This document shows positions 12,397 to 52,693 of a stretch of DNA of 64,000 bases, piece after piece. This stretch comes from Chloroflexota bacterium. GTDB lineage: Bacteria; Chloroflexota; Limnocylindria; P2-11E. The translations under genes and the position numbers were made by a program. The stretch is taken from NCBI GenBank assembly GCA_027310565.1, contig DAIDAP010000032.1:51611-115610 (forward strand), written 5' to 3'. The notes under the pieces are model-generated. The model was given only the letters and a program-made list of their open reading frames with translations, was not told the origin of the DNA and made no database searches. The first letter of the stretch is position 1, and every line of letters starts with the position of its first letter.

Positions 12397-12425
12397 CCGC
12401 GCACGGCAGCGCGGAGGCTGCCTAG

Positions 12426-12440
12426 AATGGTCAGACCATT
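12426..12440. promoter_or_regulatory. Predicted GntR/FadR-type operator, site 2: AATGGTCAGACCATT
   Basis: Perfect arms. Overlaps the bicupin-1 ATG (12427). Confidence 0.6.
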
Positions 12441-13509: not shown

Positions 13510-13549
13510 AGACGCGAGCTCTTCCGGCGGGGCCTGCGGGGCCGGCCCG

Positions 13550-13564
13550 AAATGTCATACCTTT
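13550..13564. promoter_or_regulatory. Weak operator-like site 3: AAATGTCATACCTTT
   Basis: Keeps the GT-N3-AC core and 9 of 12 arm positions. Lies 47 nt upstream of the bicupin-2 ATG. Confidence 0.3.
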
Positions 13565-13610
13565 TCCCCGGAGAGGACGGGCGGACGAAAGAGAGAGGAG
13601 CGATGGATCG

Positions 13611-14645: not shown

Positions 14646-14654
14646 CGCCGCCGC

Positions 14655-16009: not shown

Positions 16010-16029
16010 GGCCGAATCCTAATCCGCCG

Positions 16030-16731: not shown

Positions 16732-17282
16732 GTCGGGTACCCCTCCGGCGCTTCCTCGCTCGTCCAGTGCCCGATGCGCATGTAGCGGCGCCCGTACCGC
16801 AGGAGCGGGTCCCGGCGATGCTCGTCGACGCGGTCGGCGACCACCTCGCCGACGAAGAGCAGGTGGTCGCCGGTCGCGATCGTCTCGCGCACGCGGCACC
16901 ACAGGATCGCGACGCTCCCGGCGACGCCCGGCGCGACGAGGCCCTGCGGCGCCTCGACGGCCGGGATCCGCAGCGTCGCGAGCTTGTCCGGCCCCTCGGC
17001 GTGCTTCCCGGCGGCGACCGCGAGGTCCTGCTGGGAGTCGTGGAGCAGCGAGACGCTGAACTCGCCGCTCCCCTGGATGAGCCGCGTCGTGCGCGATCCG
17101 GTGTGCTCGGCGATCGCGATCATCGCGGGCGCGAGCGAGACGTACATCGTCGTCCCCGTCGCGCAGGAGCGCTCGCCACCGTGCGCCGCGCCGACGATCG
17201 CGACGGCGTGCGCGATGCGCGAGAGGACGCGCCGCGCGACGTCGTAGCGATGGCCCTCCGTCTCGCCGCCGGGATCCCTCAT
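16728..17282 (-). CDS. Flavin reductase (HpaC/split-barrel FMN-binding family), no partner monooxygenase nearby
   Basis: VAIVGAAHGGERSCATGTTMYVSLAPAMIAIAE...FSVSLL...HLLFVGEVV. 4-nt overlap with the aldolase-like gene. Confidence 0.7.
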   Translation of the reverse strand: MRDPGGETEGHRYDVARRVLSRIAHAVAIVGAAHGGERSCATGTTMYVSLAPAMIAIAEHTGSRTTRLIQGSGEFSVSLLHDSQQDLAVAAGKHAEGPDKLATLRIPAVEAPQGLVAPGVAGSVAILWCRVRETIATGDHLLFVGEVVADRVDEHRRDPLLRYGRRYMRIGHWTSEEAPEGYPT

Positions 17283-17291
17283 GCGTGGTCC

Positions 17292-17306
17292 AATGGTAAT
17301 AACATT
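17292..17306. promoter_or_regulatory. Predicted GntR/FadR-type operator, site 4: AATGGTAATAACATT
   Basis: 11 of 12 arm positions match. Lies in the 55-bp divergent gap between the flavin reductase operon and UbiD-2. Confidence 0.55.
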
Positions 17307-17337
17307 CGGTGCGCGGACGACCTCAGGAGGTGCGGCG

Positions 17338-18813
17338 ATGGCGACCACAGTGCGCACGGAGACCGCGGTCCCGACGGACCTGCGCGAATGGCTCCAGCGG
17401 GTCGACCGGCTCGGCGAGCTGCAGACGGTGACCGGCGCGACCGCCGAAGAGGACATCGGCATGGCGACCGAGCTCCTCGGGCGCACCCGCCCCTCCAAGG
17501 CGACGATCTTCGACGAGATCCCCGGCCACCGGAAGGGCTGGCGCGTGCTGTCGAACGCGCTCGGCTCGTTCGGGCGCGTCGCGGTGACGCTGGGGCTGCC
17601 GACGGACGCGTCGCCGCACGAGCTCGTCCGCCTCTGGCAGGAGCGCGTCCGGAAGGGCATCCCGACGATCGCGGCCGAGGTCGTGAAGGACGGCCCGGTC
17701 TTCGAGAACGTCATGCGCGGCGCCGAGGTCGACCTCCTGAAGTTCCCCGCGCCGAAGTGGCACGAGTTCGACGGCGGCCGGTATCTCGGCACCGGCAGCT
17801 TCGACGTGACCATGGACCCCGACGAGGGCTGGGTGAACCTCGGCACCTACCGGGTGATGGTCCAGAACAGGAACACGCTCGGCTTCTACATCTCGCCCGG
17901 CAAGCACGGGCGCCAGCACCGCGACAAGTGGTTCGCCAAGGGCGAGAAGATGCCGGTCGCGTTCGTCCCGGGCGGCGACCCGCTCCTGTTCCTCGCCGCG
18001 TGCACCGAGATCCCGTACGGGGTCAGCGAGTACGACTGGGCGGGCGGCGTGCGCGGCGTGCCGTACCGCGTGGTGAAGGGTCCGGTGACCGGCCTGCCCA
18101 TCCCCGCCGACGCGGAGATCGTCGTCGAGGGGTTCGCCGACGCGGCGGACAAGATGAGCGAGGGTCCCTTCGGCGAGTGGACCGGCTACTACGCCTCGGG
18201 CGAGCGCGAGGAGCCGGTCATGCGCGTCGAGGCGGTCTACCACCGCAACGACCCGATCGTCCTCGCGTCGCCGCCGAACGTGCCGCCCGACGAGCAGTCC
18301 TTCTACCGCGCGTTCATGCGCTCGGCGCGGCTGCGCGGCGACCTCGAGGCGGCGAGCATCCCCGGCATCGTCGGCGTGTGGTGCCACGAGGTCGGCGGTT
18401 CCCGCCTCTTCAACGCGATCTCCATCAGCCAGCGCTACGCGGGGCACGCGCGCCAGGTCGGACACGCCGCGGCGACCGTGCACACCGGGGCGTACCTCGG
18501 CCGCTACACGGTCGTCGTCGACGACGACATCGACGTGATGGACCTCGAGGAGGTCATGTGGGCGGTGTGCACGCGCTCGGACCCGGCCGAGTCGATCGAC
18601 ATCATCCCGCGCATGTGGTCGGGCCCCCTCGACCCGCGCATCCACCCCGACCGCAAGGGCCTCTCGTCGCGCGCGGTGATCGACGCGACACGGCCCTGGG
18701 AGTGGCGCGACCGCTTCCCGCGCTCGCAGCTGCCGACGCCGGAGACGAAGGCGAAGGCGCTCGCGAAGTGGGGCTGGCTCGTCGGCAAGGGAGAGCGTCC
18801 GAAGGGCCGCTAG
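17338..18813 (+). CDS. UbiD-family decarboxylase, canonical motifs (UbiD-2, 491 aa)
   Basis: AGGAGG RBS at 17325-17330. MSEGPFGEWTGYYAS motif. UbiD-like throughout. Confidence 0.85.
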   Translation: MATTVRTETAVPTDLREWLQRVDRLGELQTVTGATAEEDIGMATELLGRTRPSKATIFDEIPGHRKGWRVLSNALGSFGRVAVTLGLPTDASPHELVRLWQERVRKGIPTIAAEVVKDGPVFENVMRGAEVDLLKFPAPKWHEFDGGRYLGTGSFDVTMDPDEGWVNLGTYRVMVQNRNTLGFYISPGKHGRQHRDKWFAKGEKMPVAFVPGGDPLLFLAACTEIPYGVSEYDWAGGVRGVPYRVVKGPVTGLPIPADAEIVVEGFADAADKMSEGPFGEWTGYYASGEREEPVMRVEAVYHRNDPIVLASPPNVPPDEQSFYRAFMRSARLRGDLEAASIPGIVGVWCHEVGGSRLFNAISISQRYAGHARQVGHAAATVHTGAYLGRYTVVVDDDIDVMDLEEVMWAVCTRSDPAESIDIIPRMWSGPLDPRIHPDRKGLSSRAVIDATRPWEWRDRFPRSQLPTPETKAKALAKWGWLVGKGERPKGR

Positions 18814-19599: not shown

Positions 19600-20580
19600 T
19601 CACTCCGGGTAGACGACGGTGTCGTAGCCGAGGAGCTTGAACAGACGGTTCTGCCCGGAGAGCAGCCGCAGCGGCTCGCGGCCGGTGTTGACGTGCTGGT
19701 GCACGGTGTTCTGCGGGATGTAGACGACGTTCCCCTGCTCGAACTCCCAGGTCCCCGGCTCCTTCGCGACGTGCGCGTAGTAGCGGTCGGCGATCTCCGC
19801 GGCGACGTCCCACTGCCGGCTCTCGCCGCGGCCGGACTCGACGTACAGGACCTCGTCGGCCATGTGCCAGTGCTTGGCCGAGCGCGCGCCGGGCGCGATC
19901 TCCTGCTCGACGAGGTCGACGCTCGCGATGCGGATGTCCGGCTGCGCACCCGAGACGATGACGCGGACGCGCCCGTCGCGCGTGTCCTCCCACCTGGTCG
20001 CCGATCGCTTCACGACCTTGCGCTTCGCCGCGGCGCCGGGTGTCCAGAGCCGCGACCAGTCGGTGCGCGGCCCGTAGCGGTCGGCGTCCTCGAGCGGTCC
20101 GCTCCTCGCCTGCTGCCAGAGCCCGAGGAAGAGCCATAGCGCCTTGGCCTTGAAGATGATCCCGTGGACCTCGCGGGCCGCGTCGGTGTTGAAGTGCTGG
20201 TGCACGCTGTCGGCGTGCACGACCATCGCGTCGCCCGCCTCCCAGTCGTAGCGCTCGCCGTCGTGGATGTCGTAGCCCGTCCCGTCGAACACGTAGAAGA
20301 GCGCCTCGTTCTGGTGACCGTGCCCCTCGTTCTTGCCGCCGGGCGCGAGGTCGACGGTGTGGACCTGCAGGCTCTGCGTGTAGAAGGGGTCGTCCCCCGG
20401 ACCGACGAGCCACTCCGCCCACGACTCGGCGCCGATGCCCTCGTAGCCCGCGGTCGTCACGCCGTGTCCGACGACGAACCCCTCGCGCCTCACGCGCGGC
20501 GCGCCGTGCTGGAGCCTGCGCTGCTCCGCGAGGCCGTAGCGCTCGGACGTGAGGCCGCGCAGGAACACGCGCTCAGGCAT
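19600..20580 (-). CDS. Bicupin protein 3 (paralog of bicupin 2)
   Basis: Long runs shared with bicupin 2 (VFLRGL..YGL.EQR, GHGHQNEA.FY...GYxIHDGxRYxWE, HWHMADE..YV..G.G, IPQNTVHQH). Confidence 0.8.
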   Translation of the reverse strand: MPERVFLRGLTSERYGLAEQRRLQHGAPRVRREGFVVGHGVTTAGYEGIGAESWAEWLVGPGDDPFYTQSLQVHTVDLAPGGKNEGHGHQNEALFYVFDGTGYDIHDGERYDWEAGDAMVVHADSVHQHFNTDAAREVHGIIFKAKALWLFLGLWQQARSGPLEDADRYGPRTDWSRLWTPGAAAKRKVVKRSATRWEDTRDGRVRVIVSGAQPDIRIASVDLVEQEIAPGARSAKHWHMADEVLYVESGRGESRQWDVAAEIADRYYAHVAKEPGTWEFEQGNVVYIPQNTVHQHVNTGREPLRLLSGQNRLFKLLGYDTVVYPE

Positions 20581-20700
20581 GGATCACCCGCGCCGGATCG
20601 CCCGAGCGCTGCGGCGCAGGAAGACGCGGCCGTCGTCCGCCACTGCGCGAACCTCCCAGGGCCCCGCGGGCCCGGATCAGGGCCGGTGACAGCCCGGGCG

Positions 20701-20715
20701 AATGGTATAACAATT
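20701..20715. promoter_or_regulatory. Predicted GntR/FadR-type operator, site 5: AATGGTATAACAATT
   Basis: 11 of 12 arm positions match. Lies in the divergent gap between bicupin 3 and the ABC substrate-binding protein. Confidence 0.55.
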
Positions 20716-20762
20716 CGCGCATTCGTCCGTCCAGGGGCGACGGACGGGGATGGAGGCTACAG

Positions 20763-21872
20763 ATGAGCAGGGACCCACGCAAACTCGCCGTCGTGCTCGT
20801 CGCCATGGGCATCCTCGCGAGCGCCTGCGGCGGGGGCGCGGCGGCGCCGTCGGCGGCGCCGTCGGCCGCGCCGGCGACGAGCGCGGCTGCCACGACCGTC
20901 GCGCCGACCGCGAATCCGAACGAGCTCAGCGCGGACGTCATCAGCAAGGCCAAGGCCGAGGGCAAGGTCGTCCTCTACACCTCGCTGGAGACGACCGACG
21001 CCGAGACCGTCCTCAAAGACTTCGCGAAGGCGTACCCGGAGATCAAGGTCAACCTCAACCGCAAGTCGAGCTCGGCGATCCTCACGCAGTTCGCCACCGA
21101 GGCGAAGGCCGGCACGTACCTCGCCGACATCCTCGAGACCGGCGGGATCGATGTCGCGGGACCGATCAAGGACGGCTACACGCAGCCGTTCGCCGACAAG
21201 GTCCCCGCCGCGAAGGCGCTCCCCGCGGGCTTCGTCCAGCTGAACGGGCAGTTCGTGAACGCCCGCTCGGCGGTGGAGACTTTCGCCTGGAACACGACCC
21301 TGGTGAAGGCCGGCGAAGAACCGAAGAGCTGGCAGGACCTGCTCGACCCGAAGTGGAAAGGCCAGATCCTCGTCGAGGCGAGCGACTGGGACTTCATGCA
21401 GGGCCTCGCCAAGGGCCTCTTCAAGGGCGACGAGGCAAAGCTGCGCGACTACTTCACCAAGCTGGCGGCCAACAAGCCGTCGCTCATCGACGGACACAGC
21501 AACATGCTCGCCGCGCTCGAGGCCGGGCAAGCCAAGGTCGCGTTCGGCATCCGCGGCGACCAGGTGCAGGGCGACCTCGACGCGAAGAAGGTGCCGCTCG
21601 CCTGGAACAAGGACACCATCATGCTGCGGCTGCAGGGCCCGGTGATGGCCAAGGGCGCGCCGAACCCGAACGCGGCGCTCGTCTTCCTCCAGTGGTACCT
21701 GTCGAAGGACGGGGCCCAGAAGTCGCTCGCCGCCATCAAGCGCATCCCCGCGTACACGGCGCTCGCGGACCCGGTGTTCAAGTTCACCAACACGTTCACC
21801 TCGGGACCGGAAGACGCCCCGGAGCTGCCCAAGTACCAGGCGCTCTGGAACGAGCTCATCGCGAAGAAGTGA
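20763..21872 (+). CDS. ABC transporter substrate-binding lipoprotein (Fe3+/AfuA/PotD-type PBP2 fold)
   Basis: Lipobox LASAC and an Ala/Pro/Ser linker. GGAGG RBS. Confidence 0.8.
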   Translation: MSRDPRKLAVVLVAMGILASACGGGAAAPSAAPSAAPATSAAATTVAPTANPNELSADVISKAKAEGKVVLYTSLETTDAETVLKDFAKAYPEIKVNLNRKSSSAILTQFATEAKAGTYLADILETGGIDVAGPIKDGYTQPFADKVPAAKALPAGFVQLNGQFVNARSAVETFAWNTTLVKAGEEPKSWQDLLDPKWKGQILVEASDWDFMQGLAKGLFKGDEAKLRDYFTKLAANKPSLIDGHSNMLAALEAGQAKVAFGIRGDQVQGDLDAKKVPLAWNKDTIMLRLQGPVMAKGAPNPNAALVFLQWYLSKDGAQKSLAAIKRIPAYTALADPVFKFTNTFTSGPEDAPELPKYQALWNELIAKK

Positions 21873-21903
21873 TCGCGAGCCTGATCGCCCCGGCAGGGAC
21901 GAG

Positions 21904-23646
21904 GTGACGACGAAGGCGGTCGGTGTCGCCGCGGCGGGCGCGCGGGCGCGCGGCCTGCCGCGGCCCGACCGCGGCGTGCTCGTCGTCGTCGGGCTCGCGC
22001 TCGTCCTCCTCTACCTCATCGCCTACCCGTTGGCGATGCTCCTGCTCGGCAGCTTCGGCGTCGGCGGCGAGATCCTGAAGGGCTTCACGCTCCAGAACTA
22101 CGCCGACGCCTACGGCAACGCGCGCATCGTCCGGCTGTTCTTCAACTCCCTGGTCTACGCGCTCGGCGTCGCCCTCCTCGCGCTGACGCTGGGCACGGGC
22201 GCCGCCTGGATCGTCGAGCGCACCAACACGCCGTTCCGCAGGGTCTTCTTCGCGCTCGCGCTGGTGCCCATCATCCTGCCCGGCATCGTGAACACGATCG
22301 CCTGGGTGTTCCTGCTCAGCGGGCGCATCGGCCTACTGGCGCGCGGGATCGCGACGCTCTTCGGGCAGAGCGAGGCGCCCTTCACCGTGTTCTCGCTGTG
22401 GGGGATGATCTGGGTCGAGGGGCTCTACCTCTCGCCGCTCGTCTTCCTGCTCATGACCGCGGGCTTCAAGAGCATGGATCCGTCGCTCGAGGAGTCGGCG
22501 ATGACCAGCGGCAGCGGGACGCTCTCCACGCTGCGGCGAGTGACCCTGCCGCTGATGCTCCCGGCGCTGGCCTCGGTGACCCTCATCATCGCCGTGCGCG
22601 GCCTCGAGTCGTTCGAGGTCCCGCGGATCCTCGGCACCCCCGCCGGCATCCCCGTGTTCACCGGCGAGATCTACCGGGCGCTGCAGATCTACCCGCCGGA
22701 CTACGGGCTCTCCGGCGCGCTCTCGGTGACGCTCTTCCTGATCAGCGTCGCGGGCATCCTCTTCTACCAGCGGCTCACGCGGCAAGCTGAGCGCTTCGCG
22801 ACGGTGACCGGGAAGGCGTTCCGGCCGCGGCTCATCGACCTCGGCCGCTGGCGGTTCTTCACCGCCGGACTGCTGGTGGTCTACGTCCTGCTCATCGTCG
22901 TCCTGCCGTTCCTGGGGCTGCTCTTCGTCTCGGTGGTCCCCTACTACGCGCCGGACCTCACGCTGCTGAGCCAGGCGACGCTCGACAACTACCGTCAGGC
23001 GTTCGGCTGGACGGGGGTGCAGCGGAGCGCGACGAACAGCCTCATCCTCGCCACGATCTCGGCGACGCTGGTGACCGCCATCACCGCCGTCATCGCCTGG
23101 GTCATCACGCGCACGCGCATCCCGGGACGGCGCTTCCTCGACACCCTGGCGTTCATCCCGATCACCATCCCCGGCGTCGTGCTCGGCGTCGCGATGATCC
23201 TCCAGTACCTGTCGCCGGCGTTCCAGGTGATCCCGATCTACGGCACGCTCTGGATCCTCGTCATCGCCTACCTCATCCGGTACCTGCCCTACGGGATGCG
23301 CGCGAACAGCGCGTCGATCCTCCAGGTCCACCGGGAGCTCGAGGAGGCCGGACAGGCCGCGGGCGCGTCGTGGTGGACGACGTTCCGGCGGGTGACCATC
23401 CCGCTCCTCCGGCCGGCCCTCGTCGCGGCGTGGCTCTACGTCTTCATCGTGTCGGTCCGCGAGCTGGGCGCCTCCGTGCTGCTGGTGAATCAGGACACGA
23501 ACGTGCTCGCGGTCACCATCTTCGAGCAGTACGAGATCGGGCAGTTCAACCGGGTGGCGTCGATCTCGGTCATGCTCGTCGTCACGCTCGTCGTCGTCGT
23601 CACCATCGTGCAGCGCGTCTCCTCACGGTTCGGCGTCCGGGAGTAG
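21904..23646 (+). CDS. ABC transporter permease, duplicated (two MetI-like domains, FbpB/ThiP-type)
   Basis: 580 aa with about 12 TM segments and two EAA-like loops. Confidence 0.8.
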   Translation: MTTKAVGVAAAGARARGLPRPDRGVLVVVGLALVLLYLIAYPLAMLLLGSFGVGGEILKGFTLQNYADAYGNARIVRLFFNSLVYALGVALLALTLGTGAAWIVERTNTPFRRVFFALALVPIILPGIVNTIAWVFLLSGRIGLLARGIATLFGQSEAPFTVFSLWGMIWVEGLYLSPLVFLLMTAGFKSMDPSLEESAMTSGSGTLSTLRRVTLPLMLPALASVTLIIAVRGLESFEVPRILGTPAGIPVFTGEIYRALQIYPPDYGLSGALSVTLFLISVAGILFYQRLTRQAERFATVTGKAFRPRLIDLGRWRFFTAGLLVVYVLLIVVLPFLGLLFVSVVPYYAPDLTLLSQATLDNYRQAFGWTGVQRSATNSLILATISATLVTAITAVIAWVITRTRIPGRRFLDTLAFIPITIPGVVLGVAMILQYLSPAFQVIPIYGTLWILVIAYLIRYLPYGMRANSASILQVHRELEEAGQAAGASWWTTFRRVTIPLLRPALVAAWLYVFIVSVRELGASVLLVNQDTNVLAVTIFEQYEIGQFNRVASISVMLVVTLVVVVTIVQRVSSRFGVRE

Positions 23647-23655
23647 GAGGGAACC

Positions 23656-24771
23656 ATGCTCGTCGTCGAGGGCCTGCGCAAGAGCTACGAGAGCGGCCGC
23701 GGCAGCGTGAAGGCGGTGCAGGAGCTGTCGTTCACCGTGGAGGACGGCCGCTTCTACACCCTCCTCGGACCGTCCGGGTGCGGCAAGACGACGACGCTGC
23801 GCTGCATCGCCGGCCTCGAGCGCCCCGAGGGCGGGACGGTGAGGCTCGACGACACGGTGTTCTCGTCGAGCGGTCGCTTCATGCCGCCGCACCGGCGTGA
23901 CATCGGCATGGTCTTCCAGTCGTACGCGATCTGGCCGCACATGTCGGTGTTCCAGAACGTCGCGTTCCCGCTCGAGGTGGCCAGGCCGAAGCCGCCGCGC
24001 GAGCAGATCCGCAAGGCGGTGGAGGAGACGCTCGCGCTCGTCGGCCTCGAGGGGCTCGAGGATCGGCCCGCGCCGCAGCTCTCGGGCGGCCAGCAGCAGC
24101 GCCTGGCGCTCGCGCGCGCCCTGGTGCGGCGCCCCCGCCTGCTCCTGCTCGACGAGCCGCTCTCCAACCTCGACGCGAAGCTGCGCGAGCGGATGCGCAT
24201 CGAGCTGCGCGAGCTGCAGCGCCGCGTCGGCATCACCACCGTCTACGTCACCCACGACCAGGGCGAGGCGCTCTTCCTCTCCCACCGCATCGCGGTGATG
24301 CACGACGGACTGATCGCCCAGGAGGGCCCGCCGCGCGACATCTACGGCGCGCCTCGCTCCGGCTTCGTCGCCGACTTCGTCGGGACCGCGACCTTCATCG
24401 AGTGCGAGGTGGAGGCCGACGGCCTGCACACGCTCGGCGGCGTCGTGCGCTGCGGGCTTCCGGAGGACGTCCGCCAGGGCGACCGGGCGATCCTCGTGCT
24501 GCGCCCCGAGGACGTCATCGTGCGCGCCGAGCCGGCGCGCGCCGCCAACGAGTTCGCCGGCACCGTCCGGGTGGCCGCGTTCCTGGGCGACCACCTGGAC
24601 TGCGTCGTGGACGTCGCCGGCACCCGCATCCGCGCCCGCGCGCACCCGGCCACGCGGCTCGCCCGGGAGCAGCGCGTGTGGGCGGAGCTGCCCGCGGACC
24701 GCTGTGTCGTGATGCCGGACGACGGCTGGCGCCCGCGCGCGGCCGAGCACGACGACGACGGGGACGCCTGA
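23656..24771 (+). CDS. ABC transporter ATP-binding protein (PotA/FbpC-type with C-terminal TOBE-like domain)
   Basis: Walker A GPSGCGKTT, signature LSGGQQQR, Walker B LLLLDEP. AGGAGG RBS. Confidence 0.9.
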   Translation: MLVVEGLRKSYESGRGSVKAVQELSFTVEDGRFYTLLGPSGCGKTTTLRCIAGLERPEGGTVRLDDTVFSSSGRFMPPHRRDIGMVFQSYAIWPHMSVFQNVAFPLEVARPKPPREQIRKAVEETLALVGLEGLEDRPAPQLSGGQQQRLALARALVRRPRLLLLDEPLSNLDAKLRERMRIELRELQRRVGITTVYVTHDQGEALFLSHRIAVMHDGLIAQEGPPRDIYGAPRSGFVADFVGTATFIECEVEADGLHTLGGVVRCGLPEDVRQGDRAILVLRPEDVIVRAEPARAANEFAGTVRVAAFLGDHLDCVVDVAGTRIRARAHPATRLAREQRVWAELPADRCVVMPDDGWRPRAAEHDDDGDA

Positions 24772-40034: not shown

Positions 40035-41159
40035 TCACAGCGGGACCTGCGGAACCTCCGCGATGGTCTCGCCGGCGACGTGGTCCACGACCGCGTGGAG
40101 ATGGCCGGTCCGCGCGAAGACCGCGAGCTGGCGGTCCGCGCTCGTCCCCTCACGCGCGATCGTCTCCAGGTACTCGACCTCGCGGCGCGACCCCAGCGCG
40201 TCGACCACGTCGTCCACGAACTCCAGCAGCTCGACGGCGAGGTCGCGCATCGGCTTCTCGACCTCCTGCCCGAAGTCGATGAGCTTCGCGTCCATCCCGC
40301 CGCGCACCGCGCGCCACTTGTTCTCCTGGATGAGAGTCGGGAGGTAGCGCCGAAAGCCGAGGTTGCGCTCGCGCAGCACGAGGAGCTTCGCGCAGATCGC
40401 CTGCGTGAGGGCGGCGATGCAGAGCGTCTCCTCGACCCGCGTCGCCGCGTCGCAGATGCGGAACTCGATCGTCGGGTAGAAGGCGTGCGGGCGCAGGTCC
40501 CACCAGATCTTCTTCCCGTCGTCGATGCAGTTCGTGCGCACGAGCAGCTCGACGTAGTTCTCGAACTCGTCGTACGAGGCGAACTCGGGCGGGATGCCCG
40601 TGCGCGGGAAGCGCTGCCAGACGATCTGCCGGTACGACTTCAGGCCGGTCGTGCGCGTGAGCCAGAACGGGCTCGACGTGGAGATGGCCAGCAGGTGCGG
40701 CAGGAAGTAGCGCGCCTCGTTCATCACCTCGATGCGCCGCTCGCGGTCGGGGATGCCGACGTGGACGTGCAGCCCGAAGATGAGCAGCTCGCGGATGACG
40801 TCCTGGAGCTCCTCCTCGAGGACCTTGTAGCGCTCGTGCTCGGTGACCTGCTGGTCCTGCCAGTGCGAGAAGGGATGGGTGCCGGCGGACGCGATGCGCA
40901 GCCCGGCCGGGCGCAGCAGCGCCGCCAGCGTGCCGCGCAGGCGCAGCACCTCCTCGCGCATCTCGCTCACGTCGGCGCAGATCTTCGTCCCGACCTCGAC
41001 GACCGACTGGAGCATCTCGGGCTTCACCTGCTCGCCCAGGTGCGGCCGCGCCGCGGTGAGCAGCGTGTCGATGTGGCTCCGCAGCTGCCCCTCGGCGTCG
41101 ACGATCTGGAACTCCTCCTCGACGCCGATCGTGAGCCGCGGGACGTCGGCGGTCCTCAT
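40035..41159 (-). CDS. Carboxylate-amine ligase, YbdK/GCS2 family
   Basis: LTIGVEEEFQIVD...GLHVHVGIPD...WWDLRPH..PTIEFRICD. Confidence 0.85.
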   Translation of the reverse strand: MRTADVPRLTIGVEEEFQIVDAEGQLRSHIDTLLTAARPHLGEQVKPEMLQSVVEVGTKICADVSEMREEVLRLRGTLAALLRPAGLRIASAGTHPFSHWQDQQVTEHERYKVLEEELQDVIRELLIFGLHVHVGIPDRERRIEVMNEARYFLPHLLAISTSSPFWLTRTTGLKSYRQIVWQRFPRTGIPPEFASYDEFENYVELLVRTNCIDDGKKIWWDLRPHAFYPTIEFRICDAATRVEETLCIAALTQAICAKLLVLRERNLGFRRYLPTLIQENKWRAVRGGMDAKLIDFGQEVEKPMRDLAVELLEFVDDVVDALGSRREVEYLETIAREGTSADRQLAVFARTGHLHAVVDHVAGETIAEVPQVPL

Positions 41160-42490
41160 GCGACGCCCTCCACCACGTACGTCGGCACGACGCTCCCGGC
41201 GCCGGCGGTGACGTTGAGCAGGGCGCTCGACGAGAGGCGCGTGAGGACGCCGCCGACCTTCCCCCAGAACAGGTACGGGTCGCAGTCGACGGCGAGGTCG
41301 AGGAAGTGCGTCCGGTCGAGGAGCACGGGGAACGGCTCGCGCGGCACCCCGACGCGCTCCTGCACCACGTACGACGACGTGAGCGCGGCGAGCAGCGCCT
41401 GCTCCCACTCATGGCCGTCGACGGTCCAGCCCAGGACGACGCCCTTGCCGCCGTACTCGTCGTTCGGCTTCAGCACGAGCCCGTCCTTCGCGCCCAGGAC
41501 GTGCTCGGCGAGGTCCACGACCCGGCCGCGGTACGTCGTGTGGCCCTCGCGCACCTTGCGCGTCCACGGGACGTGCCGCGCGATGATGCGCCGCTGCGCC
41601 GGTGTGTAGAGCGCGGCGTAGCGGTCGTCCGACAGCAGCGCGAGGCTCATCTTCTTGTGCAGCAGCTTCGCGCGGAACGAGTTCACGACCGTGACGTCGC
41701 CGGCCAGGTACGCCCGCAGCAGGGGCCGCGCGAGCGCCGGCCGCGCGAGGAGCTCCGACAGCAGCACGCGGCGGTACACGACGTCCACGTCGACGCCGGC
41801 CGCGCGGAGCCGGCCGGCCCGGTAGCGCAGGTCCTCCGGCGCGCAGATCACCGTGCGCGCGCCGGCATCGGTGAACAGGCGCTGGAACATCTCGAACTCG
41901 GTGAGCGTCGGCAGGTCGCGCCAGTCGACGATCGCGATCGACCGGATGCGCCGGCCGCGTGCGCGGCGCAGCACGGTGAGCTGCCGCCGCGCGACGCGCA
42001 GCGGACGGGCGCGGTAGCGGCGCCGGAAGGCGCGCAGCGCGGGCATCCGCTCGAAGACGGACACGAGCACGTCGTTGTACGCCATGCCGGCCGGCGACTC
42101 GGCGTTGTACTCGACGTAGCGGATGACGCCGCCCGACACGAACCCGTCGAGCCGGGCCGACGGCGAGGCCGCGCGGTAGCCGGGATCGGCGAGCGCCAGC
42201 CGCTCCTCCTCGGGCGAGAGGTCGAGCTCGCGGCGCAGGTCCTCGTCCCGGAGCAGCGCGCGCTCGAGCCGCTGGAGGGCCGCGTACAGCGCCTCGGACG
42301 CGCCGGCGTTCGCCGTGAGCTGCCGGCGGTCGACGAGGTTCGGCCGCAGCGAGACGCACAGCGGCCGCTCGCCGAACATGGCGCGCGCGGCACGCTGGCC
42401 GTCGGTGAGCACCTCCGCGCTCGCGGCGGCGACGGCGGCGTCGTCGAACGCGGCGTGGTACGCGGCGATGACCCGTGCGAGCCGGCTCAC
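41156..42490 (-). CDS. Circularly permuted type-2 ATP-grasp protein
   Basis: VEYNAESPAGMAYND...LVLKPNDEYGGKGVVLGW...YVVQERV. GTGA overlap upstream and ATGA overlap downstream. Confidence 0.65.
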   Translation of the reverse strand: MSRLARVIAAYHAAFDDAAVAAASAEVLTDGQRAARAMFGERPLCVSLRPNLVDRRQLTANAGASEALYAALQRLERALLRDEDLRRELDLSPEEERLALADPGYRAASPSARLDGFVSGGVIRYVEYNAESPAGMAYNDVLVSVFERMPALRAFRRRYRARPLRVARRQLTVLRRARGRRIRSIAIVDWRDLPTLTEFEMFQRLFTDAGARTVICAPEDLRYRAGRLRAAGVDVDVVYRRVLLSELLARPALARPLLRAYLAGDVTVVNSFRAKLLHKKMSLALLSDDRYAALYTPAQRRIIARHVPWTRKVREGHTTYRGRVVDLAEHVLGAKDGLVLKPNDEYGGKGVVLGWTVDGHEWEQALLAALTSSYVVQERVGVPREPFPVLLDRTHFLDLAVDCDPYLFWGKVGGVLTRLSSSALLNVTAGAGSVVPTYVVEGVA

Positions 42491-43449
42491 CGCGGGATGA
42501 GACGCGCCCAGCGCCACTCGTCGCGCCACGGCGGCCGAGCCGCGCCGGCCGCATAGCCGAGGACGAGGTCGCTCATCCGGTCGACCGCCCACCCGAACGC
42601 CGCCTCCTTCACCGAGAACGAGTCGAGGTCCGGCGCCGGGTTCAGGAAGTCGATCGCGTAGAGCACGCCGTCGCGCACCGCGAACTCCACCGTGTCCATG
42701 TCGTAGCCGAGCGCGTCGACGAGCAGCGTCGCGTCGTGGATCGCGCGCTCGCGCAGGTCGTCCTCCAGCGGGCGATCGACGACGTAGCGCTCGTGGAACG
42801 GCGCGGTGGGGTCGTACCGGATCGGGAGGACGTCCTTGCGGCCGATGCAGATGCAGCGCACGTAGTCCTGCCAGCGGATGAACTCCTGCAGGATCATCGT
42901 CTTCGGCCGGTGCCCGGGCACGAGCGTGCCGGACTGGTCGAACGCCCAGAGCAGCTCGTCCTTCGAGTCGACCTTGTACACGTCCTTCCAGCCGCCGCCG
43001 GTGTTCGGCTTGAGGATCGCCGGCAGCCCGACGTAGTCGAGCATCCCGTCCCAATCGAGCGGGTACTCCAGGTTCCGCAGCGAGCCCTCGCTGATGTCGG
43101 GGATGTACGACTTGTTCGGCAGCACCACGGTCTTCGGCACGGCGACGCCGAGGCGCCGCGCGAGCGTGCATTCGAGGAACTTCTCGTCCGCCTCCCACCA
43201 GAACGGGTCGTTCACGACGATCGTGCCCTGGAGCACCGCGCTCTTGAGGTGCGCGCGGTAGTACGGCACCTCGTGGCTGATGCGATCGACGATCACGGCG
43301 TAGCGCGGCTCCTCGAGCTCGCGGGCGCCGCCGAGCATGGCCATCTCCGCACGCACGTCGTGAGCGGCCCCCTTGCGGTTGACCGCGTCGATGAACGCGG
43401 GCGGGAACGTGTTCTCACGGCCGACGATGATCCCCACGAGCTTCGTCAC
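42487..43449 (-). CDS. ATP-grasp domain protein (RimK-like topology)
   Basis: GLPAILKPNTGGGWKDVYKV...MILQEFI...YAIDFLN. Confidence 0.7.
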   Translation of the reverse strand: MTKLVGIIVGRENTFPPAFIDAVNRKGAAHDVRAEMAMLGGARELEEPRYAVIVDRISHEVPYYRAHLKSAVLQGTIVVNDPFWWEADEKFLECTLARRLGVAVPKTVVLPNKSYIPDISEGSLRNLEYPLDWDGMLDYVGLPAILKPNTGGGWKDVYKVDSKDELLWAFDQSGTLVPGHRPKTMILQEFIRWQDYVRCICIGRKDVLPIRYDPTAPFHERYVVDRPLEDDLRERAIHDATLLVDALGYDMDTVEFAVRDGVLYAIDFLNPAPDLDSFSVKEAAFGWAVDRMSDLVLGYAAGAARPPWRDEWRWARLIPR

Positions 43450-44153
43450 AGCAGCGCGTCCACCATCTCCTTCCAGTAGGGCCAGTCGTGCGCCCAGCCG
43501 TCCCAGAGGTGCAGCGTCGCGGGCACGGACTTGCCCCGCAACAGGCCCGCGATCCGCCGCGACTCCTCGACGTTCGGGTCGTCGCGCCCCGTCGCGATCA
43601 CCACCTCGGTCGCGCGCAGCGGCGCGAGGTAGCGCTCGTCCGTGAGCCCGGGCAGGAACGCGAGCGGGTTCACGAAGTACGCGTCGCCCTCAGCGCAACC
43701 GTCGAGCCAGCGCGCGGCGTCGTAGGCGCCGGAGAGCCCCACCGCCTTCCGTGCGATCCCGGGCCGGCGTGTCACGAACGCGAGCGCGTGGAACGCCCCC
43801 AGCGATGCGCCGAGCGCCGTCAGGTGGTCGGCCCCCTTCGCGGCACCGAGCGCCGGCAGCACCTCGTCCACGATGTAGCGCTCGTAGGCGAGATGCCGGC
43901 GGGCGCGCTCCTGCGGGCCCTTCCCCCGGTCGTAGAACGACTCGGCGTCGACGCTGTCCACGCACCAGAGGTGCAGCAGGCCCTCCTCGATGCGGCGCTC
44001 CAGGTGCGCGACCATCCCGAAGTCCTCCCACTGGTAGAAGCGGCCCATCGAGGTCGGGAAGACGAGCACCGGCACGCCGCTCGAGCCGAACACGAGCAGC
44101 TCCATCTCGCGCTCGAGCGCCGGGCTCCACCACGTGCGGTACTCGCGGTTCAC
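43446..44153 (-). CDS. Esterase-family alpha/beta hydrolase
   Basis: Nucleophile elbow GASLGAF. Esterase-D-like N-terminus WWSPALEREMELLVFG. Confidence 0.7.
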   Translation of the reverse strand: MNREYRTWWSPALEREMELLVFGSSGVPVLVFPTSMGRFYQWEDFGMVAHLERRIEEGLLHLWCVDSVDAESFYDRGKGPQERARRHLAYERYIVDEVLPALGAAKGADHLTALGASLGAFHALAFVTRRPGIARKAVGLSGAYDAARWLDGCAEGDAYFVNPLAFLPGLTDERYLAPLRATEVVIATGRDDPNVEESRRIAGLLRGKSVPATLHLWDGWAHDWPYWKEMVDALL

Positions 44154-44674
44154 CCGGCTGCGCCCCTGCGCCGGAAGCGCTGGATGAGCGCCCAGGCCGT
44201 GCGCGAGCCGCGCCAGCCGGAGAGCTGGACCGGCGACCCTTCGAGCTCCTTGTACGACGCGAAGAACATCTCGATCTCGCGCAGCCAGTGCGGCGCGAGG
44301 TCCCTCAGCTCGCGGACCTCGTCGAAACGCGGGTCGCCGAGCGGGACGGCGAGGATCTTCTGGTCCGTCCCCTTCTCGTCGTGCATGAGCAGCGTGCCGA
44401 TCGGCCGCGCCGGGAGCACGCAGCCGGGGAACGTCGGCTCCTCGACCACGACGAGCGCGTCGAGCGGATCGCCGTCGTCCGCGAGCGTGTCGGGGATGAA
44501 GCCGTAGTCCGCGGGGTAGTGCACCGACGAGTAGAGCACGCGGTCGACGCGGATCCGCCCGGTCGCCTTGTCGAGCTCGTATTTCGTCCGTGACCCCTTC
44601 GGGATCTCGACGAACACGTCGACCGACCGGCGCGCGCGCCCCGCGGGCTCCCCCTTTGCCACTCCCGCGAGCAT
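44150..44674 (-). CDS. ppa: Inorganic pyrophosphatase (family I)
   Basis: VEIPKGSRTKYELD...YPADYGFIPDTLADDGDPLDALV. Confidence 0.9.
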   Translation of the reverse strand: MLAGVAKGEPAGRARRSVDVFVEIPKGSRTKYELDKATGRIRVDRVLYSSVHYPADYGFIPDTLADDGDPLDALVVVEEPTFPGCVLPARPIGTLLMHDEKGTDQKILAVPLGDPRFDEVRELRDLAPHWLREIEMFFASYKELEGSPVQLSGWRGSRTAWALIQRFRRRGAAG

Positions 44675-44720
44675 ACGAGCGACGCGCCCTGACGGCGCGG
44701 CCGCTCGGGCTCGCGGCGGA

Positions 44721-46739
44721 TCACGCGCGCAGCCAGCGGAGCGCGTCGGCTGCCGCGAGCGGGCGGGCGATGTGATAGCCCTGGGCCTGGTCGCAGCCGA
44801 GGTCCCGGACGACGTCGAGCGTGCCGGCGTCCTCGATGCCCTCGGCGACGACGGTGAAGTCGAGCGCGTGCGCCAGCTCGACGGTCGCGCGCACGATCGC
44901 GCGCGCGTTCTCGTCCGTCGGGAGCGTCCGGATGAAGGCGCGATCGATCTTCACGGTCGAGATCGGCAGGCGGTGGAGGTACGCGAGCGAGGAGTAGCCG
45001 GTGCCGAAGTCGTCGATCGCGATCGACAGACCGAGCTCGCGCAGCTCCGCGATCGTGCGCGCGGCGCGCTCCGGATCGGCCATGAGCGTCGTCTCGGTCA
45101 CCTCGATGCCGAACCGGGCGCCCGGGACGCCGGATGCCTGGAGCGCGGCCGCGATGCGCCTGGGCAGGTCGGGCTCGAGCAGGTTGCGCGGCGAGAGGTT
45201 CACCGCAAGACGCGCGTCGAGCCCCCCGGCGAGCCACAGGTGCAGCTGCCGGACGGCGGCCGCGACGACCCAGTCGGTGAGCGACGTGAGGAGGCCCACT
45301 CGATCGGCGAGCGGGACGAACTCGGCGGGGGCGACGTCGCGATCGCGCCGCGGCCACCGCGCGAGCGCCTCGAACCGCTCGAGCCGGCCGCTGTCGCAGC
45401 CGACGATCGGCTGGAACGCGAGGGCGAGCTCGTCGCGCTCGATCGCGTGCCGCAGGTCGGCGGTGAGCGAGAGGAGCGCAGGGCTCGGCTCGTCGGGCGC
45501 CGGGGCGTACGCGGTCCACCCGACGTGACCGCGCTTCGCCGCGTACATCGCGATCTCGGCCTTGCGCATGAGCGTCGTGGAGTCGTGGCCGTCGCGCGGT
45601 GCGAGCGAGATGCCGATGCTCGCGCCGACGAACAGCTCGTGCGTCCTGATCGTGAACGGCGCGCGGATCGCGTCTGACAGGCGCCGCGCGAGGACGGTCG
45701 CGCCGCGCTCGTCCGTGTCCGGCATCACCACGGCGAACTCGTCGCCGCCGAGGCGCGCCGCCTGGCCGGTGACGCCGAGGTGCTCGAAGATCCGCTCCCC
45801 GACCGCGCGCAGGAGCTCGTCGCCGGCCGCGTGGCCGATCGACTCGTTCACCTCCTTGAACCGGTCGAGGTCGAGCGTCAGCAGCGCGGTCTCGCCGCGC
45901 GCCCGCGCCAACGCCGCGTCCAGCCGGTGGAGGAGCCCGACCCGGTTGGGCAGGCCGGTGAGCGTGTCGCGCTGCGTCGCATCCTCCATGTCGCGCCGCG
46001 CCCGGCGCCGCTCGGTGACGTCGACGCCCACCCCGAGGACGCCGTCCACCAGCCCCGCGGGGTTGCGGAGCGGCGCGAACGTCGTCTCGAACGACGCCTC
46101 CGCCACGTCGACAGTGGCCGTGACGACCTCGCCCGCGAGCGCGCGGCGCACGTGCTCGTGGATGTCCGGACGCCCGGCGTAGCGCTCGAAGATCGAGGCC
46201 CCGACCGCCGCGCCGGGCCGCCGCCCGATCCGCTCGAGGCCGCGGCCCTCCGCGAGCGTGAAGGTGCCGCTCCGGTCGAGCGTGAAGAGGACGACGGGAA
46301 GCCGCGACGTCGCCGTGCGCAGCTGCGCGGGCTCGAGCGCGAGACGGTCGTGCGCGAGCGCACGGGACCGCCAGTCGCTCATGAGACCGAAGCCGACGCC
46401 GGACGCGAGGATCGCCAGCGCGTAGGTCACCGCGGCGATCGGCGTGAAGAGCGTCGGGTCGACGTCCACCAGGACGCCGAACGGCAGCGCCTGGATGAGC
46501 AGGCCGACGAGCGCCACGAACAGGCCGCCGCGCACGCCCATGAGCCCGCCCGCGATCGCCGTGACGAGCGAGAACACGTTGAGCGCGGCGTTCCCCGCGA
46601 CGTCGTACAGCGGCACGAACGTGGCCGCGTAGACCTCGACGACGAACAGCAGGACGAGCAGGCGCAGCCGCCGCGGGAGCGCCCCGCCGACCAGCGCTCC
46701 CCGTGCCGCCTCGCGGATCGCGATGCTGCTCGCACCCAC
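44721..46739 (-). CDS. Membrane-PAS-GGDEF-EAL c-di-GMP signalling protein
   Basis: RLGGDEF, FEALARW, DDFGTGYSSL and QGY motifs are all intact. Confidence 0.9.
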   Translation of the reverse strand: MGASSIAIREAARGALVGGALPRRLRLLVLLFVVEVYAATFVPLYDVAGNAALNVFSLVTAIAGGLMGVRGGLFVALVGLLIQALPFGVLVDVDPTLFTPIAAVTYALAILASGVGFGLMSDWRSRALAHDRLALEPAQLRTATSRLPVVLFTLDRSGTFTLAEGRGLERIGRRPGAAVGASIFERYAGRPDIHEHVRRALAGEVVTATVDVAEASFETTFAPLRNPAGLVDGVLGVGVDVTERRRARRDMEDATQRDTLTGLPNRVGLLHRLDAALARARGETALLTLDLDRFKEVNESIGHAAGDELLRAVGERIFEHLGVTGQAARLGGDEFAVVMPDTDERGATVLARRLSDAIRAPFTIRTHELFVGASIGISLAPRDGHDSTTLMRKAEIAMYAAKRGHVGWTAYAPAPDEPSPALLSLTADLRHAIERDELALAFQPIVGCDSGRLERFEALARWPRRDRDVAPAEFVPLADRVGLLTSLTDWVVAAAVRQLHLWLAGGLDARLAVNLSPRNLLEPDLPRRIAAALQASGVPGARFGIEVTETTLMADPERAARTIAELRELGLSIAIDDFGTGYSSLAYLHRLPISTVKIDRAFIRTLPTDENARAIVRATVELAHALDFTVVAEGIEDAGTLDVVRDLGCDQAQGYHIARPLAAADALRWLRA

Positions 46740-50194: not shown

Positions 50195-52693
50195 TCACGT
50201 CTCCGCCTGGAGGTGCTCGACGCGGTCCGCGTACTCCTGGGCCAGCGTCCACGCGCGGCCCTCGTCACCCGCCTCGGCGTACACGTTGAAGAGCGGGCGG
50301 TCGGCGTCCGGGAGCACGAGCACCCACTCGCCGTCTTCCTGATGCTTCACGCCGTCGATCTGGCGCGTCCGCTCGGTCCGGGGATCCTGCGCGAGCACGC
50401 GGAGGACACGCCCCTTCCGCTCCCAGGGGCAGGCGACCTGCAGGCGCGCCAGCTTCGCCGCGGGCGTCTCGTCCATGACGTCGGCGAGCGTGTGCCCGGT
50501 GACGGCGAGCAGCTCGAGGAGCCGCACCGTGGCGAAGAGGCCGTCGAACGACGGATGGAAGCGCGGGAAGATGAAGCCGCCGACGCCGTCGGCCACGATC
50601 AGCGGGTGCTCGCGCGCCGCGAGGTCCATCTGCGCGTTCCCGCTGGCGCGCACGCGCTGCACGCGGCCGCCGGCCTCGCCGACGATCCGCTCGATCATCG
50701 AGGGGGCGAACACCGGCACCGCGACGACCCCGGGCGTGACGCGCGCCGACAGCGCCGCGAAGGCGACGAGGAAATGCATGTCGTTCGTCGGCCGGCCGCG
50801 GTCGTCGACGACGAAGATCTTCTCGCCGCCGGCATCGAGGATGAGCCCCGCGGAGGCGTTCAGCGCGGCGACGATCGTGCCGAGCTCGCGGCGCTCCTCC
50901 TGGAACTGCTCGAAGGTGCGGGAGCCGACGTTCTCCGACACGACGCCGTTGATCGAAACGAGGTCGACGCCGAGCTCGTTCAGCAGCTGCGGGAGGAACT
51001 GCGCCCCGGTGCCGTGCGAGAAGTTCACGACGACCTTGAACTTCCGTTCGGCGACCTGGTGCCGGTGGACGATCTCAGCGAGGAACGCCTCGCTGTACGC
51101 CTCGCCGACGCGCGCCGACTGGTAGATCGCGCCGACGTCCTCGTACGACACGCGCCGGACGTCCTCGCGGAAGAAGGCGGTCTCGACCTTGCGCTCCTGC
51201 GTCTTGTCCATGTCCAGCGCCTGGCGGTCGAAGAACTTGAGATCGCACACGCGCACGTCGAACGGCGACACGCGCACGTGGACGCCGCCGGCCGCGCCGA
51301 GCCGGCGGGTGTGGAACCGCCCGATGGGCAGCGGGGTCTGGAGGAGATCGGCGACGTGGATCCCGGCCGACACGATGCCGCCCATGAGCGCCCGCTTCAG
51401 CATGCGGCTCGAGCGGTGCTGGTCGCGGTTCATCGTCACCGTCGCGCCCTTCGGGAGCGTCGACGCGTACGCCGCGCCGAGCCTCGCCGCGAACTCCGGG
51501 GTGAGGTCGATGTTCACGACGCCGGTGACGCCGAAGCGGCCGAACAGCGTGCGGCGCCCCTGCGACCCCCAGACGAGGCTCGCGTTCACGACGGCGCCGC
51601 TCTCGATCTGCTTGTCCGGCCAGATCTTCACCTGGCTGCGCACGCGTGCGCCGTCGTTCACGACACAGTGGTCGCCGACGACGCTCCCCTCCTCGAGGAC
51701 GACGCGCGACTTCAGCGCGCACTGACGGCCGACGAGCGCGCCGTGGATCTCCGCGCGCTCGCCGATGTACGAGTTCCGCCAGACGATCGCGCGGTCGAGG
51801 ACGGCGCCGCCCTCGATCGCGACGTAGTCGCGGATGACGGTCGGCCCGACGATCTCGGCGGCCGCCCCGATCTTCACGCCGTTCCCCAGGTAGATCGGAC
51901 CGACGAGGTGGGCCTGCGGGTCGATCTCGACCTCGCCGCTCGCGAAGACGCCGGGGCGCACCTCGTCGCCGATCGGCCCCGTCTTCACACGACCGTAGAG
52001 CACGTCGGCATTCGCGCGCGCGTACTCGGGGATGGAGCCGACGTCGGTCCAGTACCCCGACGCGACGTACCCGTAGAGCGGCTCGCCCGCCTCGAGCAGC
52101 TTCGGGAAGAGGTCCTTGCTGAAGTCGAAGGCCTCGCCGACGGCGTAGCGCTCCAGGACCCGAGGCTCGATGACGTAGATCCCGGTGTTGATGGTGTCGG
52201 AGAACACCTCGCCCCACGACGGCTTCTCGAGGAACTTCGTGATGCGTCCGTCGCCGTTGGTGATGACGACGCCGTACTCCAGCGGATTCGGCACGTGGTA
52301 CAGCGTGAGCGTGACCGCCGCCCCGCGCTCGCGGTGGTACGCCACGACGGCCGAGAGGTCGATGTCCGTGAGCGCGTCCCCGGAGATCACGACGAACGTG
52401 TCGTCGAGCGCCGAGCCGATCTGGCGCACCGAGCCGCCGGTCCCGAGCGGGGTCTCCTCGACGCTGTAGCGCAGCTTCATGCCGACGCCGCCGCCGTCGC
52501 CGAAGCTGTCCTGGATCTGCGAGGCGAGGTACTGGAGCGTGACCCACGCATCGGTCAGCCCGTGGCGCCCGAGCAGATCGAAGATGTGACCGAGGCAGGG
52601 CTTGTTCACGATCGACACCATCGGCTTCGGACGGTTGATCGTGAGCGGACGGAGGCGGCTCCCCTCGCCGCCAGCCATCACGACCGCCTGCAT
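50195..52693 (-). CDS. Fusion protein: sugar-1-phosphate nucleotidyltransferase (ManC-like) + LbH + phosphomannomutase-like domains
   Basis: [14 protein letters not shown]-terminus, hexapeptide repeats, and a C-terminal PGM/PMM fold with non-canonical motifs. Confidence 0.85.

Follow-up and report, generated by a model that had tools for sequence, protein, structure and literature searches.

What might a bacterium build with three ATP-dependent carboxylate-amine ligases, encoded head to tail and translationally coupled to one another, together with a serine hydrolase? The question is raised by five minus-strand genes running from position 44674 down to 40035 of a 64,000-nt stretch (hereafter the window) of contig DAIDAP010000032.1, a Chloroflexota sequence of the Limnocylindria that originates from a mine-drainage metagenome. 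In order, the genes encode an inorganic pyrophosphatase (ppa), an esterase-family hydrolase, a classical ATP-grasp ligase, a circularly permuted ATP-grasp ligase and a GCS2 ligase (genes 1 to 5; Table 1). We find that the locus is real and typical of a widespread cassette, predicted earlier but never characterised, that the conserved unit is four genes, not five, and that its four enzymes probably constitute a cytoplasmic, ribosome-independent pathway building a small gamma-glutamyl, glutathione-like peptide or amide, a reading to which we assign a probability of roughly 60%.

All five open reading frames (ORFs) have lengths that are multiples of three and a single, terminal stop codon, and their GC content of 0.95–0.98 at third and 0.40–0.49 at second codon positions is the coding signature of a high-GC genome (window GC ~72%), identifying them as genuine genes. 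Start codons are backed by N-terminal alignment with orthologues, and successive genes overlap by 4 nt at every junction: GTGA at 44150–44153 (ppa/esterase), 43446–43449 (esterase/ATP-grasp) and 42487–42490 (ATP-grasp/permuted ATP-grasp), and ATGA at 41156–41159 (permuted ATP-grasp/GCS2). Called genes in related contigs show the same overlaps. As overlaps of this kind occur in 2 of ~30 other adjacent same-strand pairs in a rough gene list of the window, four in succession are distinctive. Coordinates, stops, codon GC and junctions confirm the arrangement that an earlier note had read from the bare sequence, and family searches, folds and overlaps agree with the gene identities and translational coupling it proposed. 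A search found no RNA-seq run containing the sequence. The single strand, the overlaps and the conserved order would suit an operon, and we infer that the five genes are probably co-transcribed.

Relatives of the permuted ATP-grasp number at least 597 in a scan of one genome per species, of which we surveyed the 80 best-scoring loci plus two metagenomic ones (82 in all). Of 75 informative loci, 62 place the classical ATP-grasp gene directly upstream of the permuted one. GCS2 is downstream of the permuted gene in 47 of 58, and the esterase gene precedes it in 47 of 70 and has another position within the locus in a further 8. Of the 48 loci that possess all four genes, 41 keep them collinear on a single strand, with gaps mostly <100 nt. 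The cassette occurs in Chloroflexota (Limnocylindria, Chloroflexia including Roseiflexaceae and Kouleothrix, Anaerolineae and Ardenticatenaceae), Dormibacterota, Actinomycetota and Gemmatimonadota; Acidobacteriota retain the permuted ATP-grasp and GCS2 only. Identities of the four proteins to those of the window co-vary across loci (Spearman 0.62–0.93), as expected of a co-inherited unit. The conservation of gene order across phyla, which the earlier note had suggested checking, holds for these four genes, but not for ppa, which stands beside the cassette in 11 of 67 informative loci, all of Limnocylindria type.

Gene 1 is a family I inorganic pyrophosphatase by its match to PF00719 (5e-57; 192.4 bits against a gathering score of 23.5), with the NCBIfam pyrophosphatase equivalogs under their cut-offs (NF002317, 165.7 against 200). 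ATP-grasp and GCS2 enzymes release ADP and inorganic phosphate, not pyrophosphate. Because of this, and because of its confinement to Limnocylindria-type loci, we rejected ppa as a mechanistic partner of the ligases; it is probably a lineage-specific first gene, a housekeeping passenger co-transcribed with the cassette in Limnocylindria only.

Among the ligases, gene 5 is the most readily assigned. It matches PF04107 (1.8e-61; 208.5 bits against 21) and the NCBIfam equivalog NF010039 (517.4 bits against a cut-off of 371), and aligns to the YbdK entries 1tt4 and 1r8g of the PDB at E ~1e-42, which predicts a YbdK-type GCS2 carboxylate-amine ligase of glutamine-synthetase-like fold. We considered and rejected its identification as a bona fide glutamate-cysteine ligase (GCL), no such equivalog scoring above its cut-off (sub-threshold scores: NF010043, 361.6 against 409; TIGR02048, 59.9 against 249; EgtA, 23.4 against 371).

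Gene 4 matches PF14403 (CP_ATPgrasp_2) at 3e-6 and 26.9 bits, slightly under the gathering score of 32; most close orthologues, and an identical protein (P0001), carry a precomputed match to the same family. A profile of the gene 4 family finds 3n6x (5e-14), Cp1B (3e-9) and YgiC (1e-4), as well as YjfC and GspS. In Foldseek searches, its AlphaFold2 model (predicted local distance difference test, pLDDT, 95.3) matches human glutathione synthetase (GS; E 1e-17, TM score 0.66) and soybean homoglutathione synthetase (TM score 0.70), and matches to the GS/GspS group as a whole reach TM scores of 0.61–0.70 over ~480 alignment columns at E-values of 1e-17 to 1e-13. All of the top 50 PDB matches fall within a single group made up of eukaryotic-type GS and homoglutathione synthetase, GspS, TryS, YgiC/YjfC, Cp1B and 3n6x, the synthetases among them coming from human, yeast, plants and trypanosomes, alongside nematode glutathione-synthetase-like effectors and the glutathionylspermidine synthetase of Escherichia coli. 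The full-length fold of the model thus places gene 4 in the eukaryotic-type GS/GspS structural group. At the level of sequence families it stands outside that group, with no match to PF03917, PF03199, PF03738 or GSP_synth. The family is large, comprising 494 clusters at 50% identity (E below 1e-30) and thousands of metagenomic members.

Gene 3 has no match in Pfam-A at E below 0.01, and we did not accept it as a RimK family or LysX member, since TIGR00768 (1e-7; 31.5 bits against a cut-off of 143.4) falls far under its cut-off, as does the LysX model TIGR02144 (22.9 against 275.6). The prokaryotic glutathione synthetase GshB was likewise discarded as an identity, there being no GshB model match and no GshB among the top 50 Foldseek matches. 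A family profile matches the ATP-grasp cores of biotin carboxylases, Ddl, ArgX and RimK, and the AlphaFold2 model (pLDDT 86.4) matches ArgX, RimK and Ddl with a probability of 1.0 (E 6e-12 to 1e-10); LysX and graspetide cyclases are also among its matches. The candidate ATP- and Mg-binding residues K147, G151–153, Q188–E189, E255 and N270 are conserved, with the K, GGG, QE and E/N motifs invariant among aligned orthologues. Predicted fold, conserved lysine, glycine-rich loop and Mg-binding Glu/Asn all indicate a member of the ATP-grasp superfamily, one that carries the family motifs VDRISHE, LKPNTGGGW and NPAPD. In the search for its family, every one of 8000 scored candidates was significant, which brings to notice a large family of classical ATP-grasps that lacks a Pfam model. 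Classical and permuted ATP-grasps are two topologies of one superfamily, so the cassette combines two ligase folds and not the three unrelated ones first supposed.

The hydrolase encoded by gene 2 exceeds the gathering score of PF00756 (28.9 bits against 22), has no NCBIfam match, and contains a triad of Ser117 (in GxSxG), Asp192 and His222 that is invariant in 20 orthologues. Against the PDB, its family profile finds feruloyl esterases, generic esterases, FphF and Ag85 proteins, with S-formylglutathione hydrolases weaker and behind the feruloyl and generic esterases (3e-4 to 3e-3). Identification as an S-formylglutathione hydrolase, for which specific similarity to FrmB, YeiG or esterase D would be expected, was rejected. 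We therefore regard gene 2 as a predicted esterase/thioesterase-type serine hydrolase without closer assignment. PF00756 comprises esterases, thioesterases or acyltransferases, and the peptide trimming previously suggested for the hydrolase is not an obvious role for such an enzyme.

Beyond the close relatives, the one constant partner of the permuted ATP-grasp across its family is a GCS2-superfamily ligase, as is evident from the synteny of the cassette, from a protein in which permuted ATP-grasp and GCS2 are fused (P0230), and from the pairing of distant members with GCL-like genes. One such member (P0235, 31% identity) lies between a plant-type GCL-like gene (TIGR01436, 1.7e-105) and a gene for a CPYC glutaredoxin 3; in locus L089 the start of the glutaredoxin 3 gene (8353–8556) overlaps the permuted ATP-grasp stop. 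When P0235 was used to seed a scan of metagenomes, 80 low-GC loci were recovered, their samples being of gut, termite and fermentation origin, and in 44 of these loci, representing 16 of 19 informative clusters at 70% identity, a GCL-like gene is immediately upstream. These plant-type GCL-like genes score 6.5e-58 to 1.7e-105 against TIGR01436, under its cut-off, and their products are annotated at source as glutamate--cysteine ligase in Clostridiales and Acetatifactor metagenome-assembled genomes (MAGs). The family-wide pairing resembles that of gshA with a glutathione synthetase.

Other neighbours vary by lineage. A DinB_2 gene directly follows GCS2 in 11 Limnocylindria-type loci, and a PuuD-like class-I Peptidase_C26 gene (1.6e-27 to 6.3e-34 against NF008471, under cut-off) is present in 9 Gemmatimonadota loci, either inside the cassette or following it, and in 2 Actinomycetota loci, where it is upstream. 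In Pyrinomonadaceae, a PilZ protein (L051, L061, L066 and L078) and an unassigned 186-aa protein are encoded between the permuted ATP-grasp and GCS2, a position taken in one Chloroflexi MAG by a metallo-beta-lactamase-fold gene with an N-terminal Cys-rich motif (L004, 10204–11037). A small membrane protein is encoded in a few Limnocylindria loci, and Fes-like esterase genes are convergent to the cassette in the Actinomycetota/Dormibacterota variant. Homologues of DinB_2, C26, PilZ, glutaredoxin and plant-type GCL were all absent from the 64-kb window. More distant relatives are built into larger enzymes, such as an AMP-binding enzyme fused to a permuted ATP-grasp (P0253) and a 3684-aa protein resembling a non-ribosomal peptide synthetase (NRPS; C-PCP-TE) with several permuted-ATP-grasp-like stretches (P0212).

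From the gene identities, folds, active-site motifs, coupling and synteny returned by these tools, we infer the order of steps, the substrates and the possible thiol nature of the product as follows. The GCS2 ligase would phosphorylate a carboxylate, most probably that at the gamma position of glutamate, and join it to an amino acid, for which cysteine is the leading candidate. The permuted ATP-grasp could then activate the free C-terminal carboxylate of the dipeptide and add a third residue or an amine, and the RimK/LysX-like classical ATP-grasp might add one further unit or make a branch, so that up to four building blocks would be strung together by a logic like that of glutathione and glutathionylspermidine synthesis. 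The esterase may cleave some derivative of the product (an ester, a thioester or an amide), serving turnover or the recycling of S-acyl forms. Both the GCS2 family and the gamma-glutamyl hydrolase-like C26 partner point to a gamma-glutamyl character. As accessory genes, C26, DinB_2 and the metallo-beta-lactamase insertion of L004 would suit gamma-glutamyl or thiol chemistry. That the product would be a small molecule is suggested by the AMP-binding and NRPS fusions, by the lack of room for a precursor ORF, and by the substrates of Cp1B and YgiC/YjfC, which act on small molecules (PMC12568646). Stepwise assembly of a peptide-like metabolite, as proposed from the first reading of the sequence, is thus the best-supported explanation of the locus.

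Several observations weigh against this pathway. The likeness of gene 4 to glutathione synthetase is at the level of fold only, at 11–18% identity, and gene 5 is of YbdK and not plant-GCL type, scoring under every glutamate-cysteine ligase equivalog cut-off; the gamma-Glu-Cys ligase activity of E. coli YbdK is weak. RimK and LysX/ArgX, the nearest fold neighbours of the classical ATP-grasp, act on protein C-termini. The links to DinB_2, C26 and glutaredoxin are lineage-specific and absent from the window, and that to glutaredoxin is a single locus (L089) in which the gene is split by a frameshift or stop. The surveyed loci are biased to close relatives, and the chemistry of the cassette members is predicted from their sequences.

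Whether the product is a thiol is a separate matter. The DinB_2 superfamily includes thiol S-transferases, and this association, the fold of gene 4, the distant GCL and glutaredoxin links and the esterase-D family of the hydrolase together hint at a thiol. By analogy with these systems, a cysteine-containing product is a possibility that we put forward tentatively, leaning against it on balance. About as doubtful is the fuller proposal that the cassette makes an undescribed low-molecular-weight thiol, a gamma-Glu-Cys-based tri- or tetrapeptide or amide, which would be the glutathione equivalent of the carrier phyla (here Chloroflexota of the Limnocylindria, Chloroflexia and Anaerolineae, Dormibacterota, Gemmatimonadota and some Actinomycetota), with gene 4 as the bacterial counterpart of eukaryotic GS and the esterase as an S-acyl-thiol hydrolase.

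Could the ligases instead act on a macromolecule, extending the C-terminus of a protein or carrier peptide encoded elsewhere, with the hydrolase removing the modification? The best fold matches of gene 3, to ArgX-LysW, RimK-RpsF and LysX, are those of enzymes of this kind, and the strong conservation of the classical ATP-grasp (~50–80% identity between phyla) would suit a macromolecular partner. However, neither a small or acidic-tailed ORF nor any other gene, a target or carrier gene included, is conserved with the cassette in the 82 loci, the characterised relatives of the permuted enzyme all have small-molecule substrates, and NRPS and AMP-binding modules are joined to its distant homologues. 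In particular, a search for conserved small ORFs beyond the shadows of the four genes found no precursor cluster, and space for one is lacking at the overlapping junctions of the window and in the short gaps of the 41 collinear loci. The protein-tail modification that the earlier note had raised as a second option, and the nearby precursor ORF that it had suggested looking for, therefore find little support, and we consider such a role unlikely. A ribosomally synthesised and post-translationally modified peptide (RiPP) or graspetide system was also rejected, as no precursor peptide gene lies beside the ATP-grasp.

Somewhat more improbable still, in our estimate, is the capture of amines by gamma-glutamylation for catabolism or detoxification, as in the Puu pathway, in which the ligases would tag an amine and hydrolases release the products. 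Such a route would account for the PuuD-like C26 genes in or beside the cassette in Gemmatimonadota and some Actinomycetota, and the GCS2 ligase is glutamine-synthetase-like, as is PuuA. However, three ligases are present, no conserved oxidase, dehydrogenase or aminotransferase was found among the surveyed loci, and C26 is missing from the window and from most Chloroflexota loci.

We give equally little credence to a secondary metabolite (an inhibitor, antibiotic or siderophore-like compound) assembled by stand-alone ligases in the manner of E-64. Cp1B of the E-64 pathway is both a structural and a sequence relative of gene 4 (PMC12568646), Fes-like esterases adjoin the Actinomycetota variant, and NRPS-fused homologues exist, all of which would fit such a product. 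Against it, the surveyed loci contain no conserved transporter or exporter, regulator or tailoring enzyme, the housekeeping context is kept with relatives and base composition matches that of the flanks, and the cassette is broadly distributed, apparently by vertical descent, with identities that co-vary. Chance juxtaposition of enzymes without a common pathway, for which one could cite the 4-nt overlaps at two other pairs in this high-GC window, is contradicted by collinear conservation across at least four phyla and by fusion proteins, and is scarcely credible.

The product of the cassette is likely to be a core metabolite of abundant, poorly cultured soil phyla and not a rare antibiotic, because in these phyla the cassette sits among housekeeping genes. 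Around the locus itself these are rsmI, ppa, metG and an NAD synthase gene, a backbone common to relatives. Downstream, 21 nt separate the GCS2 stop from the end of the convergent methionyl-tRNA synthetase (MetRS) gene. Upstream, RsmI-like and EamA genes precede a same-strand PAS-GGDEF-EAL gene (44721–46739, minus strand) that ends 46 nt before ppa. As this gap is so short, the 5' limit of the transcription unit is not fixed at ppa; the spacer is a possible promoter region, although a scan of the locus found no sigma-70-like or other promoter-like site and no terminator-like site. No Rfam family matched in the window or in the 9 loci scanned, so that no riboswitch hints at a ligand. A recent arrival of the cassette by horizontal transfer is not supported, given that its GC matches that of the flanks and the neighbouring backbone is shared with relatives.

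Table 1. Genes and spacer of the ligase cassette locus, in order of transcription (positions in the 64,000-nt window)
Feature	Position	Strand	Basis
46-nt spacer between PAS-GGDEF-EAL gene and ppa	44675..44720	-	ORF coordinates
ppa, family I inorganic pyrophosphatase, 174 aa (gene 1)	44150..44674	-	PF00719
Predicted esterase-D/feruloyl-esterase-family serine hydrolase, 235 aa (gene 2)	43446..44153	-	PF00756, triad
Predicted classical ATP-grasp ligase, 320 aa (gene 3)	42487..43449	-	Family profile and fold
Predicted circularly permuted type-2 ATP-grasp, 444 aa (gene 4)	41156..42490	-	PF14403 (sub-threshold) and fold
Predicted YbdK-type GCS2 carboxylate-amine ligase, 374 aa, last gene (gene 5)	40035..41159	-	PF04107, NF010039

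The PAS-GGDEF-EAL gene between rsmI and ppa has no called counterpart at that place in the related contigs L001 and L002. PilZ is a receptor of cyclic di-GMP (c-di-GMP), and the presence of this gene in the window and of PilZ within Pyrinomonadaceae cassettes may reflect a c-di-GMP link or coincidence. Among the relatives, contigs labelled Gaiellaceae, Acidoferrum/Acidiferrales, Acidoferrales or Verrucomicrobiae (L002, L025 and L031; P0018 and P0047) encode permuted ATP-grasps 58–81% identical to that of the window, and some of them retain the Limnocylindria-type gene order, possibly as a result of mis-binning. In L084 (1702–6061), a permuted ATP-grasp family member of 31% identity is flanked by a proline-iminopeptidase-like Abhydrolase_1 protein and a 618-aa membrane protein instead of GCS2, and appears to be another variant of the system. 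The break in the L089 glutaredoxin gene could be a sequencing error or mark a pseudogene. Elsewhere in the window are a Mu-type transposase with an rve integrase core near its start (1890–3404, minus strand); a cluster of two UbiD-family decarboxylases, a family III CoA-transferase and a GntR/FCD regulator (9533–18813), adjoined by a bicupin and a PotABCD-like ABC importer (19600–24771); and an 832-aa fusion of a nucleotidyl-transferase (GDP-mannose pyrophosphorylase-like) with a phosphomannomutase (50195–52693, minus strand), which is kept in contig L002.

How does the cassette compare with known systems? A literature search found nothing on the cassette and no characterised product for this combination of ligases and esterase, in keeping with what had been supposed at the outset. 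Taken singly, gene 3 shares the three-domain ATP-grasp fold and the ATP/Mg motifs of RimK, LysX, ArgX and Ddl, but differs from them in having no LysW-like or RpsF-like partner gene and in its N-terminal VDRISHE motif, which is specific to its family. Gene 5 belongs to the same GCS2 family as E. coli YbdK (PDB 1r8g and 1tt4), with ~340 alignable residues, yet falls in a separate NCBIfam equivalog, NF010039; to our knowledge, YbdK is not part of a multi-ligase operon in E. coli. Gene 4 is a relative, by sequence profile and by predicted fold, of fungal Cp1B of the E-64 pathway (PDB 9cjn), a stand-alone ATP-grasp of a non-NRPS pathway, where it links a carboxylic acid with an amino acid, and of YgiC/YjfC, which are peptidyl-polyamine synthetases (PMC12568646). 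Unlike gene 4, Cp1B has as its partners an iron/2-oxoglutarate (Fe/2OG) oxygenase, an ANL amide-bond synthetase and a decarboxylase, in a eukaryotic secondary-metabolite cluster.

Taken together, the genes most resemble two systems. Like the synthesis of glutathione, glutathionylspermidine (GspS) and trypanothione (TryS), the cassette sets a GCS-type ligase beside an ATP-grasp that, by its modelled fold, is of the eukaryotic GS/GspS kind; like GspS with its amidase, it encodes a hydrolase alongside the ligases; and, as in glutathione systems, other lineages pair the family with GCL-like genes, and once with a glutaredoxin. It differs in that the hydrolase is a serine esterase and not a CHAP amidase, in its additional RimK/LysX-like ligase, and in the YbdK type of its GCS2 enzyme. 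There are, then, structural as well as genomic grounds for relating the bacterial CP_ATPgrasp_2 enzymes to the glutathione synthetase of eukaryotes, and if the product should prove to be a redox buffer or cofactor, it would help to complete the picture of low-molecular-weight thiols in bacteria.

The second system is a gene neighbourhood that Iyer, Abhiman, Burroughs and Aravind reportedly described in 2009 (Mol Biosyst), in which type-2 permuted ATP-grasps, GCS2-like ligases and alpha/beta hydrolases are said to occur together and to have been predicted to synthesise small peptides. The partners are the same as here, and the Roseiflexaceae/Chloroflexia loci L042, L043 and L075 carry the same cassette; the prototype of PF14403 we take to be RoseRS_2616 of Roseiflexus. 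The alpha-E domain and transglutaminase, whose absence the earlier note had remarked on, are reportedly partners of type-1 permuted ATP-grasps (Pfam; the same 2009 work), and for type 2 a GCS2 ligase and an alpha/beta hydrolase are the normal company, so that their absence is not unusual. In contrast to the neighbourhood as reported, the cassette adds the classical ATP-grasp without a Pfam model, lacks the GAT-II and M20 partners, gains C26, DinB_2 or PilZ by lineage, and includes ppa in Limnocylindria. What goes beyond that prediction is the full-length structural match of gene 4 to eukaryotic GS and the family-wide pairing with GCL-like ligases, which together turn 'some peptide' into a testable, glutathione-like hypothesis.

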